Shown here: positions 2,462 through 26,219 of the stretch, in pieces
How the letters are laid out: each line of letters opens with the position of its first letter
Position numbering within the stretch: position 1 is the first letter of the stretch
IMG/VR virus record: IMGVR_UViG_3300037067_007633
Location: 96,178 to 160,177 of that record
Length of the DNA: 64,000 nucleotides
Source of the DNA: a virus
Lineage: Duplodnaviria > Caudoviricetes
Reading direction: 5' to 3' (one strand)
Program-made: the position numbers and the translations under genes
Notes under the pieces: model-generated
The model's input: only the letters and a program-made list of their open reading frames with translations
The model's database searches: none
Told to the model about the DNA's origin: nothing

Positions 2462-3429
2462 TATGAAACTATATTGTGTTTAACCAACAATCTATATAAT
2501 TGTTTGTCAATAGTATTGTCTTTAGCCCACTGTTTTTGTGATTTTAAAATTGTTAAATATAATTTCTTTTCTTCTTTTAATATCTTAGCCAACTTTAATA
2601 TTTTCTCAAAATCTCCATATTCATAATTCGGAATTATATGTAGTGGAAAAAGTTCTTTAACATTTGGGTGATTATCATATATTAATAGGGAGTTTAAGAT
2701 GGGACCAATCCAATCCCTAAAGCCTTTCATAGTCCCCTCTTTTGTTAATTCCGGTCTATTGTGAGAAGTAGTACCAAGAGTAAACCAACTAGATATATAC
2801 TTTCTATATATTTTTTCTAGATTTCCATCATTATGTCCTGTTCCACCACCTTGACTAAAAGTATATCCATTATCTTTGATATATTTTATCATGTTGTTTC
2901 TATAAGACCCAACATTACTTATAGAACAGGGATGATAAACTCCAATAAAATCATTGTCTTTAATTGAGAAATCAAGTGGACCAGCTAAGACCATTAATTC
3001 ATCTATTAATTTGTCTGAAATTGTCCACATCCACAAATCATTTTTTATTCCCTTTTCATCAAACCAAAACCTACAATTAGAATTTAATTCAAGTGTTAAT
3101 TCTATTTCTTCTTTTTGATCTGGTAATTGTAAAGGAAGGTTGTTTTTAATATAATACATTGTGTCGCAACACAACGTAATAAATTTAGCGTTTGGAAACC
3201 ATTTGCGTAAATCTTTAGCGGTTAATCCAGCATGTTGAGGATAACCAATTTCAAATATAAATAATACATCATTACTTTCATCCCTATTAATTTTTCTTAA
3301 TTTCATATCGGAAAAAGAAATAGTATGAACTGCACAATCTTTAATATATTTAGATAGTCCTTCTATTCCATAGTTTACACTTACTACTTCAAAAGGAACA
3401 TCAAAATCCGTAACAGTGTAAATTTTCAA
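2461..3429 (-). CDS. Putative GT-B glycosyltransferase-like protein
   Basis: C-terminal pattern loosely resembles CgeB-like GTs; glycan-gene context; TTG start. Confidence 0.45.
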   Translation of the reverse strand: MKIYTVTDFDVPFEVVSVNYGIEGLSKYIKDCAVHTISFSDMKLRKINRDESNDVLFIFEIGYPQHAGLTAKDLRKWFPNAKFITLCCDTMYYIKNNLPLQLPDQKEEIELTLELNSNCRFWFDEKGIKNDLWMWTISDKLIDELMVLAGPLDFSIKDNDFIGVYHPCSISNVGSYRNNMIKYIKDNGYTFSQGGGTGHNDGNLEKIYRKYISSWFTLGTTSHNRPELTKEGTMKGFRDWIGPILNSLLIYDNHPNVKELFPLHIIPNYEYGDFEKILKLAKILKEEKKLYLTILKSQKQWAKDNTIDKQLYRLLVKHNIVS

Positions 3430-4014: not shown

Positions 4015-5076
4015 TTAATTTTTTATCTTTATATTATATTTCTGCTTACAAATTTCTATATAGAGTTGTGATATTTTTTTATGATCTGGTTTATCTCTCA
4101 ATTTTGAGTTTGTATACAAATTATTTAACCGCAAGTCTAAATTTTCCGCCACCTTTTCAATATCTTCATATTTCCATTCACCCCTTAGAATACCTTTTAA
4201 TTCTTCTGCATCTGGTCGTTTAACAATTACTTTACCATCACGTAATATTTCTTCTGACATTCTTATTAAACGAACTAAGTGCATAGCATGTTTAACATCA
4301 TATCCATATTTTCTTTCTAGTTCTTTTCTAAAAGGATTTCGTTCTTTATCCCATTTTTGATAGGATGACCATATTTGTAATGCAGAAGCGTATTGTTTTT
4401 CTTGTAATACTTGTTCTTTAATATTATCAGAAACAAATTCTATAGGCAAACTATGTATAATATTTTGATGTTCTTTTGATATTTTACTATTTTCAGATAA
4501 ACCAAAATCTTTACGACTCGGTTTACACTTTGGTGGATTTAATAGATATCCACGATGAATACGAATTCTTTTTAATTGTTGAATTGCATATCCTGAAAAT
4601 GTCCATCGTGCTTTTTTAGATAAAAACAAATGCCTATTTTCTTTAATTTTTTCCCATTCTGGTTTACAAATATCAATTAAATCATCAATATATAAGAATT
4701 CTATAATGTTTGGATTACAGTCTGCGGCTAATTTTAAAAATTTCCTTAATTCATGTAATTCTTCGTCACCTTCAGTAGAATGTACCGTTTCAACCGACAA
4801 AGATAAATCTCCGCGATCTGATTGTAATGCTGACTCAATACAATTTTTACACCCTGTTAAATCAGCATTATTAATACAATCTAGTGCAGAATGTAAATTT
4901 TGTTTTATTGTTCCGTGTCCGATGAAACTTGTTTTAAATAAATCAAACGCATAATTTAAAGGGGCAATAAACACACCTCTTATATCAATATCGCTATTTG
5001 GTCTATTGGTTCCGTATTGATGAGAACCGGAAGTAAATTTAAAAATACAATTATCAAGTGCTTCTTTGTAATTCAT
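4015..5076 (-). CDS. Pol-beta superfamily nucleotidyltransferase (RlaP/YcgL-like)
   Basis: SGSHQYGTNRPNSDIDIRG, NPNIIEFL, GYDVKHAMHLVRL. Confidence 0.88.
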   Translation of the reverse strand: MNYKEALDNCIFKFTSGSHQYGTNRPNSDIDIRGVFIAPLNYAFDLFKTSFIGHGTIKQNLHSALDCINNADLTGCKNCIESALQSDRGDLSLSVETVHSTEGDEELHELRKFLKLAADCNPNIIEFLYIDDLIDICKPEWEKIKENRHLFLSKKARWTFSGYAIQQLKRIRIHRGYLLNPPKCKPSRKDFGLSENSKISKEHQNIIHSLPIEFVSDNIKEQVLQEKQYASALQIWSSYQKWDKERNPFRKELERKYGYDVKHAMHLVRLIRMSEEILRDGKVIVKRPDAEELKGILRGEWKYEDIEKVAENLDLRLNNLYTNSKLRDKPDHKKISQLYIEICKQKYNIKIKN

Positions 5077-5719
5077 TGAGTTTTTCCAAATCTTTATAAT
5101 AAATACATTTTTTTAATCCTATAAATAGCTTCTTTATAGGGTCTTTTAGAAGTGGCTCTATTTTTGAAAATTCCACAATAGCTTTTACCACTCCTATATT
5201 ATACATCATATTTTCTAAATAGACAAGTATAACCAGTTGTTTATTTTGATTGTTTTTTAATAATGTGTCTTTGCCGCCACAAATATCTTTATTAGCGTTT
5301 TGAAACGTCCAACTATAGTCTTTACAAAAATCTAAAGTTTTTTTATTACAAGATTTAACGTGGATATCAATATTATCATATTGTAAATCACATTTCCACT
5401 TTTTAGCTTTTCCTTTTCTAATTTCTAAATCTGGCTCTAGTAGGGGTAAACCATATTGAAATAAAGCTTGTGCTGCTATAAACTCGGCTTTTTTACCTAA
5501 AAATATATCGTTAAAAATTTTCTCCTTTTGGGCATTTCTGTGTTTTTCATAATATTCAGCGGATTGATTTTTCCCGCTCATTGCTTTCACAAATTCTTCA
5601 CATTTACTATTTATTTTATCATTTTCTTCTTTACTAAAAGTTATAATAATATCATTTATGTATAATATATTCATTTTTTTCCATATATTCATGTAATTTA
5701 CAGGATACATGTATTTCAT
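5054..5719 (-). CDS. Hypothetical protein, possible PD-(D/E)xK nuclease fold
   Basis: GKKAEF...PDLE...CDL...IHVKS pattern; true start probably downstream of 5719. Confidence 0.4.
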   Translation of the reverse strand: MKYMYPVNYMNIWKKMNILYINDIIITFSKEENDKINSKCEEFVKAMSGKNQSAEYYEKHRNAQKEKIFNDIFLGKKAEFIAAQALFQYGLPLLEPDLEIRKGKAKKWKCDLQYDNIDIHVKSCNKKTLDFCKDYSWTFQNANKDICGGKDTLLKNNQNKQLVILVYLENMMYNIGVVKAIVEFSKIEPLLKDPIKKLFIGLKKCIYYKDLEKLNELQRST

Positions 5720-19570: not shown

Positions 19571-20068
19571 TTATTCCTTAAAAGTGTAAGTTTGAAAACA
19601 TAAGTCGAACATCTCATAAACACCCTTTTCTTTAGCTTGTTTTTTTAATTTTTTCAAATCTATATTATTATCTTTTAAATATTCGTGGATTAAAAATTCT
19701 AAAGATTCTTTTTTGCCTCCTTCTTCTTTTGTTAATTGTGTTAATTTAGCAACTTGCTCAAAAAACGTATCAAAATCAACATCTTTGTTTTTATACATCC
19801 ACACAATAAAATTTGGATTATAATATCTTATAAGACATTGTTTCATTATATATAGAAACAAAAATTCTTTTATAGCATAATTTTCTACAAAATACTCAAT
19901 ATCATTTATAATAACTTTTGAATTATAAATAGTGATTTTGATTGTTGTTTGTTGTAATTTTGGATATTCTAATTTCTCTGGTAGTTGTAATTCTACAGTA
20001 TTGTGTTTTATTGTTGCTATAATTAAATATTCGTGCTCAATCAATAATTTTTTTATATTTGAAAACAT
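19571..20068 (-). CDS. Hypothetical protein
   Basis: ORF packed in operon. Confidence 0.5.
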   Translation of the reverse strand: MFSNIKKLLIEHEYLIIATIKHNTVELQLPEKLEYPKLQQTTIKITIYNSKVIINDIEYFVENYAIKEFLFLYIMKQCLIRYYNPNFIVWMYKNKDVDFDTFFEQVAKLTQLTKEEGGKKESLEFLIHEYLKDNNIDLKKLKKQAKEKGVYEMFDLCFQTYTFKE

Positions 20069-21651
20069 TGTTTAATGATATATCCTTGTCTTCCTCTTGC
20101 TTTTTCTAATTGAATTAACGCCGTGTTTCCTGGATATAAAATAGCCTTCATTTCAACCCATTGGTTTGGAAAACATATAATATTCTCTATTGCTGATGTT
20201 CCGTCTGATATTACTAAAAACGCCATTTTTTGTCCATTTTTTGTTGTTATTTCTCTGGCGGCAAAAATCTCCACAGCAACTACAATATATCCACTTTTCC
20301 CATCCACTACTTCTTTACATGTACAAGTAGCTGATATTGAATTATTGCACCCATCAACTTTACTGCATGATATTGGGGCTCCTAAATATTCTTTCTCTGT
20401 CCACGAAATCCAATCTGGAGTATCATTTAGTAAATGTGGGGGGTTGTTAAGTGAAGAGACAAAAGACAACAGTTTCTCTTTACGCTTTATTATACAACCA
20501 TTTTCAGAACAGTCAAGTATAGAATCTTTTAAATTTTTATCTTTGTGTTCTTGAATATATTTTTTCTCTTTTGGTGTTAATTTATTCCAAATATCAAACT
20601 CAAAGAGCATGATATTACGATTTAACAAGAAATAATCTAAAGCCCCAGATGAAATAAATGCGGTGTTTGGTCTAGACCCAATATTATCACTAAAGAATAT
20701 TAAATAATCTAGCCATACCCAATCCTTTATTTTCTTCCCTATTAATATTTCCGCTTTAATTCGTGCTTCTATTATTTTATTTAAAGAAGATTCTCCAACA
20801 TTTTTAAGATTTGAAATTCCAAATCTAATATATTTATTATCAACTATATGAATATTAAGTTTTTCAGATCTAAAATCTGGAACCATAACACTAATATCTT
20901 GTTGTTTAGCGTCTGTTACTAATTCAAATATTTCCTCGTGTGGTTTTTGTTTGGATTTGGCAAATTGTAAATAGGAACAGTAAAATTGTAGGGGAAAATG
21001 GGCTTTACAATAGGCGGAATAATAGGCGTCGATTGCATAACAAACGGCGTGACTTTTATTGAAGCTGTAACGCTGACTTTCTTGTATCCATCCAAATATT
21101 TCTTCAGCTTTTTTATCATCAACAATTCCTGTCTTTTTACATCCTTCTAAAAATTCAATCTTAACTTTTGCCATTACTTCTGGTAGCTTTTTTCCAATAG
21201 CTTTTCTGAGTGAATCCCCCTGTTCGAGGGAGAAGCCGGCAATCTCTTTAGCAATTAAAATGGCGTTCTCTTGATACACCATGATCTGATATGTATCTTT
21301 AAGAATAACATCTAAAGATGGATGTAAAGATTCAACTTTTTCAATACCATTTTTTCTATCACAATATCTAGCAGTCATGCTTTTAGGTGGACTACCAGAG
21401 AGGGATTTCAAACACCCCGGACGGAGGATACTAACTAAAGCTGCTAGGTGTTCTATGTTCTCTGGCTTCAACTTATTTGCCCACACTTTTCCTAATGGAC
21501 TTTCAAGTTGGAAAACTCCCTTTGTTCTTCCGCTTGATAATAAATCCCATGTCTTTTTACATGTAAGTGGAATATTATCAAAATCCAATAGAATATGACC
21601 CTTTTCATCTAATTGAAATTCACAACCACAATCTAATAACTTTGTTGTCAT
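20053..21651 (-). CDS. dnaE: DNA polymerase III alpha, C-terminal part (fingers, HhH, OB)
   Basis: GVFQLES, LRPG, VYQE, LRKAIGKK, YSFNKSHA, FGISNLKNVG, KMAFL. Confidence 0.93.
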   Translation of the reverse strand: MTTKLLDCGCEFQLDEKGHILLDFDNIPLTCKKTWDLLSSGRTKGVFQLESPLGKVWANKLKPENIEHLAALVSILRPGCLKSLSGSPPKSMTARYCDRKNGIEKVESLHPSLDVILKDTYQIMVYQENAILIAKEIAGFSLEQGDSLRKAIGKKLPEVMAKVKIEFLEGCKKTGIVDDKKAEEIFGWIQESQRYSFNKSHAVCYAIDAYYSAYCKAHFPLQFYCSYLQFAKSKQKPHEEIFELVTDAKQQDISVMVPDFRSEKLNIHIVDNKYIRFGISNLKNVGESSLNKIIEARIKAEILIGKKIKDWVWLDYLIFFSDNIGSRPNTAFISSGALDYFLLNRNIMLFEFDIWNKLTPKEKKYIQEHKDKNLKDSILDCSENGCIIKRKEKLLSFVSSLNNPPHLLNDTPDWISWTEKEYLGAPISCSKVDGCNNSISATCTCKEVVDGKSGYIVVAVEIFAAREITTKNGQKMAFLVISDGTSAIENIICFPNQWVEMKAILYPGNTALIQLEKARGRQGYIIKQCFQI

Positions 21652-21917
21652 ATTATTTTAGTCAATTCAATTAAACATTGTTTGCATATATGTGTTCCAG
21701 TTTCATCATTTAGAAGCAAACACGGTTTTATTATATTTTTAAAAAATTCTTGATAAATTCTACTATATTCCTTATATTTTTCTTCTGTATAATCACCGAC
21801 CCAATCGTTTTTGGTATAAATATGAGAAACAAGTTTGTTGAATTCTTTAGTGTATTTTGGATCATAACAAAAATCACAAATATCGTCTTCTACAATCAAA
21901 TCATTTTTTATATTCAT
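21648..21917 (-). CDS. Hypothetical Zn-finger protein
   Basis: CDFC...ICKQC. Confidence 0.55.
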   Translation of the reverse strand: MNIKNDLIVEDDICDFCYDPKYTKEFNKLVSHIYTKNDWVGDYTEEKYKEYSRIYQEFFKNIIKPCLLLNDETGTHICKQCLIELTKII

Positions 21918-22141
21918 ATTTTCAAATATCCTAAATTAATAAGGATTTTAATTCCAGTAGGAGTTATAAAATTCCATCCATTTACTTGTTTGACATATCG
22001 ACATTTTACCAAATTGTTTCTTGCGGACTTTGAGATTAAATTTCCATCCCATGTGACTTTAGTTAATTGTATTAATTGTTCTATGTTATTTTTTAATATA
22101 TATTCTGCTACTATTTGGTTTGCTAACTTTTTATTATCCAT
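21914..22141 (-). CDS. Hypothetical protein (winged-helix-like)
   Basis: WDGNLISKSAR..LV...ITPTG. Confidence 0.5.
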   Translation of the reverse strand: MDNKKLANQIVAEYILKNNIEQLIQLTKVTWDGNLISKSARNNLVKCRYVKQVNGWNFITPTGIKILINLGYLKI

Positions 22142-22145
22142 TATA

Positions 22146-22397
22146 TTATTCCTTCCATTCTAAAGATGTTTTTCCGGTTTTGCTATCTACTACGTAATGC
22201 ATAACATCATTATTAACCAAAAAATTATTAAAACCATGCATATCTGCCATTACAATAAAAAGAAACATTGTACAACACAAAAGAATTAAAGTAATAAATA
22301 TTGAGAAACGAATTTTGTCATTAAAATATAAGCTGAGTAATGTTAAGTGAATTAAAAATAGAGACGTAATAGCAATACTCGCACATAACAAAGTCAT
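22146..22397 (-). CDS. Small two-TM membrane protein
   Basis: Two hydrophobic segments. Confidence 0.55.
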   Translation of the reverse strand: MTLLCASIAITSLFLIHLTLLSLYFNDKIRFSIFITLILLCCTMFLFIVMADMHGFNNFLVNNDVMHYVVDSKTGKTSLEWKE

Positions 22398-23077
22398 TAT
22401 TTTTCCTCCTTATTTCGTAGACAATTTTTAAATTGTAATCTTGCAGTTCCAGTTTCTTCTCGTGTTTTTGTGAGATACCTTGATGCTGTAAATAGTTTTA
22501 CTAACATTTGATGACACATTTTACAATCAAAAAGTGCATCGTGTGAATTTTCTAGGGTCGCTGTACTCATTCCCATATATTCTAATACTATAGATAATTT
22601 TAATTTAGGTAATTCTGGATTATTTTCATTCCAATATAACATTAAATAATAAAGATCAAAGAAATTTACTTGATTAAATAATTTTTGTCTACCAGATTTA
22701 GCATCCCAAGGTCCAAATCTTTCACAGAACCTAGAAATTATAGGTAAATCAAACCCTAAAATATTATATCCAGACATTATTGGAGCAGTATATGTGGAAT
22801 TACCACGATTATATTTCCCAACCCAAGCACAAAATTGTTGAAAAACAAGTTTGATATCAGGAGCATTGTCTAATATTTCATGATTAAGTTTATTTACAGC
22901 TAACGCTCCAGGTTCAACAGTGTCCCAATTTTCTGGTTTTATGTAAGAACAAAACCCATCTTTGATTTCTAAAGTTCTAGGATCTAACATTAAACCAGCT
23001 ATCTGTAAAATTTGTGCTGTTGAAATGCTAGCACTCGAAGTTTCAATATCCACAATGCAAATATGATTGTAATTCAC
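22397..23077 (-). CDS. DEDDh 3'-5' exonuclease (DnaQ/epsilon-like)
   Basis: VDIETS, GYNILGFD, HDALFD. Confidence 0.9.
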   Translation of the reverse strand: MNYNHICIVDIETSSASISTAQILQIAGLMLDPRTLEIKDGFCSYIKPENWDTVEPGALAVNKLNHEILDNAPDIKLVFQQFCAWVGKYNRGNSTYTAPIMSGYNILGFDLPIISRFCERFGPWDAKSGRQKLFNQVNFFDLYYLMLYWNENNPELPKLKLSIVLEYMGMSTATLENSHDALFDCKMCHQMLVKLFTASRYLTKTREETGTARLQFKNCLRNKEEK

Positions 23078-23283
23078 TTTTGATCTCCATTGTTTAATTT
23101 ATCCATAGCGTCTGCAATTCTACGAAGTTGTTCAGAAGTAAAATATCCATCTAAACACGATATAGTTTTGTCTAATGAAAAATATTGTTGTTCTCTAATA
23201 TCAGATAATTCTTCATTTAATTCTATATTATTTTCCATTTTGATTTCCTTATTCATAATTGTTAACCAATCTACAAACTTCAT
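23074..23283 (-). CDS. Hypothetical protein
   Basis: ORF packed in operon. Confidence 0.45.
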   Translation of the reverse strand: MKFVDWLTIMNKEIKMENNIELNEELSDIREQQYFSLDKTISCLDGYFTSEQLRRIADAMDKLNNGDQK

Positions 23284-25155
23284 GTAATTTATCTAGTAAT
23301 GATATACCAAGTATATCCAATTTTATTACTCCAAGTGCCTCCAAATCTTTAAATTCCATATCACATATTAAAGATTCGGTTCCCTTATCATAAGCCATAG
23401 GACAAAGTTCGTTTAACGGAATGTGAGAGATAGCTATTCCAGAAGCATGGCGGCTTTTATTACGTCTCGTTCCTTCTAAACGTATTGATTGGGAAAACTT
23501 TTTACACAAAGGTCCATCAAGTTCCCCATCTTCTCTAATAAAACACCATTGTTTTAATTCTTCTTTATGATTTTCTAGTGCCCATTGCACTATCGAGGCA
23601 TCACCAGTTTCTTCACGCATTTCTTGTAATTGATCAATTATTTCAGCTTCGTCTGGAATATATTGACTTATTAAGTTCATTTCTTCAAACGATATTCCGC
23701 CATGTACCCTTAGCACATCTTTGATCGTTGAACGCCCTTGCATTCTACTAAACGTACTAATCTGTGCTACCTTATCTTTTCCAAACTTTTCTTTAATATA
23801 AGAAATAATATTATCTCTAAAGTCTGATTCAAAATCCATATCAATATCAGGTAAAGATATATTATCTTTTGTATTTCTTCCTTTATTGTAAAATCTTGAA
23901 AATAGTAAATTGTATTGTAATGGATCAGCTTTTGTAATACCAAGCAAATATAGTATTAATGATCCCCCAGCACTTCCACGCCCTACTCCAGTTAATTTAT
24001 TATTTCTTCTTACATAGTTAATAATATCATAAACAATAAGAAAATAATCTTCTAATCCAACCTCTTTTAATATTTGGTATTCCTCATTAAATCTATCAAC
24101 ATATTCTTTAATAGGAATTCCAGTAGACTCAATTTTACTTTTAAGTTTTTTCCAACCCTCCCTACATAGTTTTCTTAAATACTCAATAGAAGAGGAACCA
24201 TCGGGGGTAATATATTTGGGTAATTGGGGTTGGTTGGTAATGTCATATTCCTCACAAAGTTCGGAAATTTTAACAGTGTTATCTAATTCCTCTTTGGTGT
24301 GAATTAGTTGCATTTCTTCGTTAGAAGGAATATGGTAAGAATCAGATATAAAAAATTGTTTTAACGCAATATCTTCCCCATTTAATTGTTTTTTCTGCAA
24401 TTCTTGAAAAGTTGTTTGTAAACTAGAACATAAAACCACCCTTTGATCTTCCGCATCTTCCCTACGGCAATAATGGGCATCTGGAGTAGCCACAAGTGGT
24501 ATATTATATTTCCTCCCAATTCCCCTCATTATTTCCGCTATCTGTTTTGCTTTTGGATTCTTATCTTGGTCAATTAATTGGACTTCAAGGAAAAAGTTTT
24601 CCTTTCCAAATGTGTCCCACAAATCATTAATAAGAGATAGGCAATTAAGTTCGTAAGCATCCTTTAAAGTGTCATCATCGTTGAAAATCCTGGAAGTAAA
24701 TAGGGAACCTAAATGTCCGCAAATAGCTATGATATTTCCCCTATTAATTTTCGCTATTTCCACTAGATTTAATCTTGGCTTATAATAGAAGTTTTCCGGC
24801 TTATTTGACGTGCTAACAATCTTTATTAAATCTTTCCAACCCTCTTTATTCTTCGCAAGAAGAACAATGTGTTGAAGTTTACGTTGTTGTTTTAACTTAG
24901 GATCTTCCTCACAACAATACGCTTCAATTCCCAAGATGGGTTTTATCTTAGCTTTTTTCATTTCCTTGAAGAAACTTACAGCACCAGAAATATTTCCATG
25001 GTCTGTTATGGCACACGAGGTCATTCCTAATTCTTTACAGCGTTTTGCAATATCTTTAGGTTTAGATATGCCATCCAACAAACTATAGGTAGTCCACACC
25101 ACCCTTAAGTATGGACGTGAGTGGGTATATACAATGATTTATTCTCTACGTCCAT
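23249..25155 (-). CDS. dnaE: DNA polymerase III alpha, N-terminal part (PHP + palm); frame interrupted by 17-nt insert at 25091-25107
   Basis: MDVENKSLYIPTHVHT (25155-25108) + TYSLLDG...TDHG...DAH...GRGSAGGS...PDIDMDF...HASG...KLDILG; removing 17 nt restores HVHTTYSLLDG. Confidence 0.9.
25091..25116 (-). promoter_or_regulatory. Candidate programmed translational bypass element (take-off ACT, stop TAA, 17-nt gap, landing ACT, hairpin)
   Basis: mRNA CAU ACU UAA GGGUGGUGUGG ACU ACC UAU; stem GUCCAUAC/GUGUGGAC. Confidence 0.65.
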
Positions 25156-26201
25156 AATTTTAGGTGGTCCTCCTTTCCAGCTACTAATGCTGCTAAAAAT
25201 TTATAATATTGCATATCTAAATTTTTCCTTGATTGATTGACAGTTTTATGAACCCATTGTAGATTGTTTTCAACATATTCTAAATTATTATCTATGCGAT
25301 CTAATGATGCTGTATTTATACATTTTATATATTCTTGAGAATTGTTTGGTAATATAATTTTTTGTCCTGTTATAGCACAACACCCATTTTGTTTTATAAA
25401 TAATTCTAAAGCATATTCTTTATCAATTTCAAAATTAATTTTCCGTTTTTTAGCATTATATATAATATCTTTCCAAAAACTTTTATATATAATTAAATTA
25501 TTGGTGTTAACACTATTTTGTTCTATTAGCGGATTTTGTATTAATTTACATAAATTGATAAAATCTTTTATTGATAATGAAGCTTTTATTTTGTTTATAT
25601 CTTTATGTAACCACTGAACATTATCTAAAGAATATCCTAAAGAACTATCTTTTCTATCTAATGAAGCTGTTTTAAAATTTTGTTCTAATGATATTGGTAA
25701 ATCACTTAAAGCACATTCATTATTTTGTTTTTCAAATAAATCCCAAGCTTCCTTTATAGTAATATTAAAATTTATATTTCTATTTTTAGCACAACATTTT
25801 ATACTAGACCATAAATTTCCACTTATACCACCGTGCCCCTTCCATAAATGATTTTCTATGCCGTATTTATATGTACATTTACCACAAGATTTTACATTAC
25901 CATTTTTTAATAAAGATACATGAACATTTCTTTTTTTGCCACATTCACATTCACACTCCCAAATTGTTGTACCATTTTTACTTTTACCAACTTTTTTTAT
26001 TACAGTAAGTTTATTAAATTTTTGTCCAGCGACATCTAAAGCAGAACCAAAATCTATTCTAGGTATATTATATTTATCTATGTAATTATATATAGTGTGT
26101 ACAGTAGCACCAACCATTTTAGCAATATAATATGGTCCCTTTTTATTTTTAGTATATTCTTCTTCTAAAAATTCTTTAGTTAATATTTTATCAAACTTCA
26201 T
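25146..26201 (-). mobile_element. Free-standing homing endonuclease with two tandem His-Me-finger-like (HNH-type) domains
   Basis: GQKFNKLTVI..WECECECG..KSCG domain; repeated SLDR.D...Y...N.QW.HK..N; GGAG RBS favours ATG 26201 over 26216. Confidence 0.8.
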
Positions 26202-26219
26202 TTGATTAATCTCCATGAT

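Follow-up and report, generated by a model that had tools for sequence, protein, structure and literature searches.

We report an interruption in the dnaE polymerase gene of a virus (Duplodnaviria; Caudoviricetes) at which ribosomes would leave one Thr codon (ACU), pass over 17 nt, and resume behind a second ACU, giving an intact PHP motif. The stretch analysed (the window, 64,000 nt) comprises positions 96,178 to 160,177, the final 64 kb, of IMG/VR record IMGVR_UViG_3300037067_007633, which is 160,177 bp long with an estimated completeness of 85%; the G+C content of the window is ∼29%, and its minus strand carries nearly all genes, including every feature treated here (Table 1). From sequence comparison, we put the probability of the hop at roughly 75%, and it is the only reading that appears to fit the comparative data. 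It is likely, too, that the gap belongs to a mobile cassette (25091-26216, minus strand), which would consist of an HNH endonuclease gene and a replacement dnaE 5′ end with programmed translational bypass.

The break lies just after the His-Val-His-Thr codons of the PHP motif. As the original prediction had described, an ACU at 25110-25108 stands directly before UAA, and a second ACU (25093-25091) lies 17 nt on, at the exact spacing expected of DnaE. The codons ACC TAT AGT TTG TTG GAT GGC follow this second ACU from 25090, and once the 17 nt up to it are removed, the PHP motif of DnaE is re-formed exactly. Past the stop, an open frame of 617 amino acids (aa) extends from GTG 25102 to 23249 and covers PHP and DNA_pol3_alpha. 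In the Pfam PHP profile, the Thr of the landing codon takes position 6, where an uninterrupted relative has the Ser that follows HxH; positions 2-5 (L-H-x-H) are absent from this long open reading frame (ORF) and are supplied solely by a 16-codon mini-ORF that ends at the take-off codon. The spacing from HxH to the Asp of LLDG holds in the window only if the hop is assumed. The run resembling a Shine-Dalgarno (SD) sequence that had been noticed ahead of the landing codon is present at 25106-25097 and ends 5 nt short of that codon; in relatives with short gaps, a purine-rich run directly abuts the landing triplet. The mini-ORF has its own SD, and an SD of the AAGGAG type occurs at the same place in all 35 aligned cassettes.

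The same break recurs in related phages. A protein search retrieved a large family of DnaE N-parts at 52-56% identity and one at 73% (L082, a Logan contig), and ∼20 of the 120 proteins listed begin at or just before Tyr-Ser-Leu-Leu-Asp-Gly or have odd N-termini. Scanning IMG/VR with the family profile yielded 80 loci, 79 of them scorable and 12 of these interrupted at the same codon, and a DNA pattern scan found a further 37 loci. In all, the set contains 52 loci with the interruption and 68 without it, and 35 junction sequences and 24 cassette types can be distinguished; the interrupted loci come from independent assemblies, and their dnaE genes are 52-75% identical to that of the window. L082 has the same arrangement as the window (ACU take-off codon, stop, 17-nt gap, ACU landing codon); seven of the 17 gap bases differ between the two, while the stop, the G-rich run, and the landing ACU are kept. 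Near-identical relatives were found neither by an exact-pattern scan of viral contigs at the window junction nor by megablast against GenBank phages. Since a Thr-specific pattern scan of IMG/VR gave 81 matches and a scan of JGI metagenomes for the hairpin described below plus Thr gave 12 chance matches, none of either in dnaE, the Thr-type clade with 17-nt gaps consists of the window and L082. A scan for hairpin mini-ORFs elsewhere in the window's genome was crude and was swamped by AT-rich chance matches.

The geometry of the gaps argues most directly for a hop. Gap lengths of 7, 8, 9, 10, 11, 12, and 17 nt occur across the cassettes, with 7 nt in L144, 10 nt in L140, and 12 nt in L258. On division by three they leave 0 in five types, 1 in nine, and 2 in ten; since every frame is represented, one kind of frameshift or readthrough could not serve all cassettes. 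If the ribosome moves from the Ser or Thr codon that follows HxH onto the triplet preceding x-Tyr-Ser-Leu-Leu-Asp-Gly, the invariant spacing between HxH and the Asp of LLDG is regained in every case, and only such a hop achieves this throughout. The original prediction had pointed to related dnaE genes, to the presence or absence of the insert in them, and to agreement between their take-off and landing codons; this comparison bears it out: take-off and landing are synonymous codons in 17 of the 24 types, far more often than chance would give, and the second base of the landing triplet is C in all of them. At other offsets a synonymous match occurs in 0-2 of the 24, save one out-of-frame offset with 9. 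Take-off is from a Ser codon (UCN) in all cassettes besides those of the window and L082. In seven loci (L179, L195, L201, L219, L254, L168, and L101) the take-off codon is UCC and the landing triplet ACU, a match at two of three positions; 2 nt past the landing ACU, these UCC/ACU cassettes have a cognate UCA that is out of frame and nonproductive. The landing frame is without a start codon in 13 of the 24 types and contains a stop in eight, including L082, whose UAA abuts the landing ACU on its 5′ side with no start codon there, so that neither a frameshift could join its protein nor reinitiation start it.

Codons on both sides of the gap are under protein-level selection. Across 31 distinct cassettes the final 8 residues of the mini-ORF, Tyr-x-Pro-Leu-His-Val-His-Ser/Thr, are kept through many synonymous changes (six codons for Leu, three for Pro, two for His); beyond the gap, the Ser after the landing site is encoded by TCA, TCG, TCT, or AGT. 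Over 118 family members, little or no variation is seen at the other PHP metal ligands. Taken with the gaps in all frames, the landing match, and the landing frames that are closed or lack a start, this selection supports the hop that the original prediction had proposed.

The conserved RNA element is a hairpin that runs from the start codon of the mini-ORF to its His-Val-His (HVH) codons, not a stem at take-off. In every interrupted allele, the mini-ORF opens with nine bases that are reverse-complementary to its HVH codons, and 8-9 of the nine outer pairs can form there, vs a mean of 4.9 in uninterrupted alleles. In the alignment of 35 cassettes, 98.4% of the cells of the hairpin are paired; one covarying pair is G-C in 20, A-U in 15, and broken in none, and two pairs vary only to G-U. 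All 31 interrupted alleles compared use GTC for Val and CAT for the second His, codons that are free to vary in uninterrupted ones. Codons 4-6 pair with the Pro-Leu codons, in a register that differs between lineages. The mean minimum free energy (MFE) of the mini-ORF is -17.5 kcal/mol (z -5.3) over 29 cassettes, as compared to -0.45 (z +0.3) over 49 uninterrupted alleles; the window's own hairpin is weaker (-12.5 kcal/mol, z -3.4). In the MFE folds of both the window and L082, two sequences only, the hairpin is lengthened by pairing between the gap and the spacer that separates SD from AUG, with compensating differences between them. The original prediction had placed the stop in the loop of an 8-bp stem. 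This local stem exists and reaches -13 kcal/mol in the window, but its z of -1.9 is a narrow gain over shuffled sequence (L082: -5.4 kcal/mol, z -0.5), it goes unchosen in MFE folds of 95-106 nt, and it is absent from L082 and most cassettes; moreover, it shares the bases GUCCAU with the conserved hairpin, so that the two are mutually exclusive.

We propose the following course of events. Initiation would occur at AUG 25155, and translation of 16 codons would bring the ribosome to a pause, with UAA in the A site and peptidyl-tRNA-Thr still on ACU 25110-25108. The codon would then be released, the ribosome would slide 17 nt without decoding, and the same tRNA would re-pair with ACU 25093-25091; decoding would restart at ACC 25090, and the product would be a single DnaE N-part whose metal-binding motif, HVHT-TYSLLDG, is intact. 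Refolding of the start-to-HVH hairpin behind the ribosome would probably drive this movement; the hairpin is a 5′ structure able to form at the mRNA exit. At the ACU-UAA pause, its 3′ arm would lie inside the ribosome and its 5′ arm already outside, and full closure would require forward movement of the mRNA by ∼10 nt or more, which is the same scale as the observed gaps. Landing after 17 nt would put the SD-like run 5-11 nt behind the P site, a normal SD spacing, so the run may position the P site and thereby fix the landing position.

Among the competing explanations, the one that survives best, though we judge it unlikely, is termination at UAA followed by reinitiation at GUG 25102 or 25099 by means of the SD-like run; the resulting DnaE would lack the HxH ligands, and the mini-ORF would be a leader or a non-covalent PHP complement. 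Gene callers annotate the start of dnaE in this way (P0002), two in-frame GUG codons do lie 2-8 nt past the stop with an SD-like UAAGG just upstream, and five cassette types have an AUG right behind the landing triplet; PHP activity might, in addition, be dispensable given the separate DnaQ-like exonuclease (22397-23077). Yet the SD-like run is spaced merely 0-3 nt from the GUG codons, and 13 of the 24 types, including L082, have no start in the landing frame before x-Tyr-Ser-Leu-Leu-Asp-Gly although those codons are under purifying selection. Reinitiation also leaves the landing-triplet match unexplained, and it sits poorly with the retention of Tyr-x-Pro-Leu-His-Val-His-Ser/Thr in the mini-ORF through synonymous changes and with the invariance of all the remaining PHP ligands.

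A very doubtful alternative is conventional recoding peculiar to each lineage, with a -1/+2 frameshift at ACU UAA in the window that would add Arg-Val-Val-Trp-Thr to the PHP motif, and +1 frameshifting or readthrough in the relatives. The landing frame of the window is open across the gap, and shifty stops with nearby SD-like sequences are known to stimulate frameshifting, as in prfB. Against this, good -1 or +2 re-pairing is unavailable at ACU-U, a stop closes the frame that would have to be used (UAA in L082, UGA in L101 and L140), the added residues are unconserved and would alter the HxH-Asp spacing by 2-6 residues, and homologous cassettes would need three different mechanisms. We also considered that TGA might encode Trp in the relatives, given that TGG and TGA alternate at one gap position; this would open the +1 frame of L101 and L140, but it fails for the in-frame gaps, for the -1-frame gaps, and for the UAA of L082.

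That the break is a nonfunctional scar or an artefact, arising from assembly error or from a disabling insertion during endonuclease-mediated repair that left dnaE impaired, is highly improbable. The record is a single metagenome assembly, and the original prediction had allowed for a sequence error; however, the same break stands at the same codon in 52 independently assembled loci, which have diverged in sequence while keeping their geometry, covariation and synonymous-only change indicate long-term selection, and dnaE is the only polymerase gene of the record. Removal of the 17 nt from the mRNA by excision or editing (a micro-intron), followed by conventional translation, has nothing besides the precise restoration of frame in its favor and is scarcely credible, for we know of no bacterial or phage splicing system that removes 7-17 nt, and such removal would need neither a stop at the first gap position, found in 24 of 24 types, nor a landing repeat of the take-off codon.

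Several observations nonetheless weigh against the hop. The two GUG codons (25102 and 25099) stand in the landing frame of the window right after the SD-like run, and what speaks against reinitiation in the window itself appears to come only from comparison with L082 and the wider family, while the Thr-type 17-nt clade has just these two known members. In seven of the 24 types, the landing and take-off codons match at only two of three positions (ACU or GCY vs UCY), and five of these seven have AUG right after the landing triplet. The take-off stem-loop expected of a gene 60-type bypass is not conserved, and with that and a nascent peptide of only 16 residues, high efficiency is not assured; those of the 16 residues that are conserved are also PHP motif residues.

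The gap appears to be the 3′ end of a mobile HNH homing-endonuclease cassette, a point absent from the original prediction. Directly upstream of the mini-ORF lies a gene for a free-standing endonuclease; the stop codon of this gene (25148-25146) falls within the opening codons of the mini-ORF. The protein matches PHROG 3322 (endonuclease, E 1e-31), PHROG 1035 (endonuclease VII, 3e-25), and PHROG 374 (HNH, 8e-25), and its phage homologues carry HNH endonuclease annotation. It is 44-45% identical to ORFs of ∼240 aa in the same position in L118, L175, L216, and L261 (E 1e-52 against the L118 and L261 counterparts); in relatives, this ORF lies between a PD-(D/E)XK gene and dnaE. The window's protein is ∼115 aa longer than its relatives beside other cassettes because its C-terminal nuclease module is duplicated in tandem, residues ∼250-350 repeating ∼140-230 as a second internal match. 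A tblastn search with the endonuclease in the same genome matched only the gene itself.

A full endonuclease copy is found at six interrupted loci (including the window), a remnant at eight, and neither at 34; a full copy is absent from all 68 uninterrupted loci. On the polymerase tree, 8-9 changes are required to account for the interrupted state, and a tree constrained to unite the interrupted alleles in one clade is rejected (delta lnL 525, p-AU 1e-65); this scatter indicates that the cassette is mobile. It appears to move between phages and often to outlive its endonuclease. Decaying copies stand beside intact cassettes in L132 (1384-1467) and L101 (∼1337-1465), where only the last 27-40 endonuclease codons are left. 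In L107 (34-240) and L109 (∼1235-1471), an uninterrupted dnaE is directly preceded by a remnant of the endonuclease family; loss of the bypass cassette with retention of the nuclease remnant would account for this, as would a related element that inserts without a gap. As for a co-conversion tract, interrupted alleles show no surplus of protein identity to one another past the landing codon, and the cassette boundary is therefore placed at or near the landing codon. The gap probably renders the phage's own dnaE immune to its endonuclease.

The dnaE region of the window (20053-25155, minus strand) is divided into two genes, one for the PHP and catalytic domains and one for the finger and HhH domains; a 69-aa ORF, the DnaQ-like exonuclease gene, and three small ORFs lie between them. 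The split is shared by L002, L082, and L083 and is kept down to 47% identity. The resumed N-part is the sole PF07733 match across the 160-kb record, and no family A or B polymerase, nor any second replicative polymerase, was detected in the whole record. Because no other replicative polymerase is detectable there, dnaE should be essential. No tRNA genes lie within the window; the record as a whole has four (Lys-UUU, Met-CAU, Leu-CAA, and Ile-UAU, at G000:C1:22342-33837, outside the window), none of them a Thr, Ser, or suppressor tRNA. In L002 (47% identity), the PHP motif is uninterrupted and the catalytic domain contains an insert of ∼120 codons; an in-frame TAA followed directly by ATG inside this insert (3108-3113) might mark either a readthrough site or another point at which the gene is split. 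An intein appears to interrupt the dnaE C-part in L082 but not in the window, the L082 matches (intein-splicing and LAGLIDADG, at 4397-5476) being weak.

Table 1. Coordinates, in the window, of the interrupted dnaE, its recoding elements, and the neighboring genes
Feature	Coordinates	Strand	Evidence or remarks
Free-standing HNH / endonuclease VII-like homing endonuclease, 356 aa	25146..26216	minus	directly upstream of mini-ORF
SD of mini-ORF, AGGAGG	25169..25174	minus	read from sequence
Spacer ACCACC between SD and start codon	25163..25168	minus	predicted pairing with G-rich half of gap, 25104-25098
Mini-ORF, 16 codons, true DnaE N-terminus, ends Pro-Thr-His-Val-His-Thr	25108..25155	minus	read from sequence
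Start codon of mini-ORF, ATG	25155-25153	minus	read from sequence
Conserved hairpin, 5′ arm (start codon plus 5 nt)	25148..25155	minus	pairs with 25118-25111
Conserved hairpin, 3′ arm (His-Val-His codons, directly 5′ of take-off codon)	25111..25118	minus	
Local 8-bp stem-loop, stop in loop	25092..25116 (arms 25116-25109 / 25099-25092)	minus	window-specific
Take-off codon ACU (Thr)	25108..25110	minus	read from sequence; same codon in L082
UAA stop abutting take-off codon	25105..25107	minus	UAA/UAG at this position in 24/24 cassette types
Coding gap, 17 nt, stop codon through landing triplet; first 11 nt SD-like	25091..25107	minus	read from sequence
Landing triplet ACU, same as take-off codon	25091..25093	minus	read from sequence
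dnaE N-part, resumed reading frame (PHP from profile position 7 on, Pol III alpha catalytic domain)	23249..25090	minus	Pfam PHP 8e-36, DNA_pol3_alpha 3e-66
DnaQ / RNase T-like 3′-5′ exonuclease, between the dnaE halves	22397..23077	minus	Pfam RNase_T 2e-11
dnaE C-part, separate gene (finger and HhH domains)	20053..21651	minus	Pfam DNA_pol3_finger 2e-40

The closest known system is gene 60 of phage T4, in which a 50-nt translational bypass lies within the mobA homing-endonuclease element (Manning and Atkins, bioRxiv 10.1101/2022.08.31.505936; T4 record NC_000866), and whose published bypass homologues are confined to topoisomerase genes (bioRxiv 10.1101/2022.08.31.505936). The dnaE cassettes share with gene 60 the matched take-off and landing codons, the stop directly after take-off, and, in the window at least, a candidate SD-like element a few nt 5′ of the landing codon. 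As with gene 60 and mobA, an HNH-type homing endonuclease gene stands directly upstream and overlaps the start of the recoded ORF out of frame, the cassette brings a replacement segment of the host gene, the target is an essential replication gene, and the arrangement recurs in related phages with loss of the endonuclease ("hit and run"). For gene 60, pairing of the mRNA as it exits the ribosome has been argued to drive forward bypassing (bioRxiv 10.1101/2024.12.09.627546), and our proposal of hairpin refolding for dnaE agrees with this.

The differences are equally clear. The target is dnaE, not a topoisomerase gene; the gap measures 17 nt in the window and 7-12 nt in relatives, as compared to 50 nt in T4 gene 60 (∼20 nt in one gene 60 clade); and the nascent peptide before take-off, 13-16 residues in the dnaE cassettes, falls well short of the length of the T4 gene 60 signal. 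Take-off would involve tRNA-Thr or tRNA-Ser in the dnaE cassettes, as against tRNA-Gly in T4 gene 60. Moreover, the dnaE cassettes conserve a 5′ hairpin that includes the start codon and not a take-off stem-loop, whereas in gene 60 homologues the reverse holds. Because the endonuclease shows no BLASTP similarity to T4 gp60.1 (MobA), we regard the dnaE cassette as an analogue, not a homologue, of gene 60/mobA.

Two other forms of recoding invite comparison. Short hops over a stop or slow codon between matched codons are described, as far as they are summarized in one preprint, for test constructs in E. coli (refs 5-8 in bioRxiv 10.1101/2022.08.31.505936). On that description, the proposed dnaE hops would resemble them: a few nt are passed over independently of frame, a stop occupies the A site, and the peptidyl-tRNA re-pairs with a codon that matches. 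The construct hops, as described there, are of low efficiency and occur in synthetic or mutant contexts, whereas the dnaE device is natural, conserved, structured, and located in an essential gene. The dnaE cassettes also resemble prfB in having a stop in the A site and a possible positional signal, an SD-like element near the P site. The programmed +1 frameshift of prfB (RF2) moves the ribosome by a single nucleotide, the tRNA re-pairing with an overlapping codon and the SD lying upstream; such a shift cannot yield gaps in all three frames.

Full-text literature searches found no published report of bypassing in dnaE, and programmed bypassing, a very rare form of translation, has so far been represented in bacteria and phages by one homologous family, the T4 gene 60 cassettes, in which the signals (nascent peptide, take-off stem-loop, 5′ structure, and internal SD) have been hard to separate. 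We consider it fairly likely that the dnaE cassettes are a second natural bypass family that evolved independently, in which a hairpin ORF of 13-16 codons would act as a mechanical ratchet whose refolding pulls the mRNA by 7-17 nt, over a stop and onto a Ser or Thr codon that matches, and which would have spread with a homing endonuclease while protecting against it. If so, gene callers systematically mis-annotate such polymerase genes as N-terminally truncated, and the window holds the longest hop among the cassettes compared and is, with L082, the only user of tRNA-Thr. The dozens of natural variants in gap length, frame, landing codon, and tRNA would then form a ready-made mutational series, and the driver of ribosome sliding would be directly testable in small reporters. 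The pairing of homing endonucleases with recoding devices, by which an essential gene survives insertion, would be a case of convergent evolution, in which the second, unrelated family would differ from gene 60 in its much shorter gaps, minimal nascent peptide, and strongly conserved 5′ hairpin.

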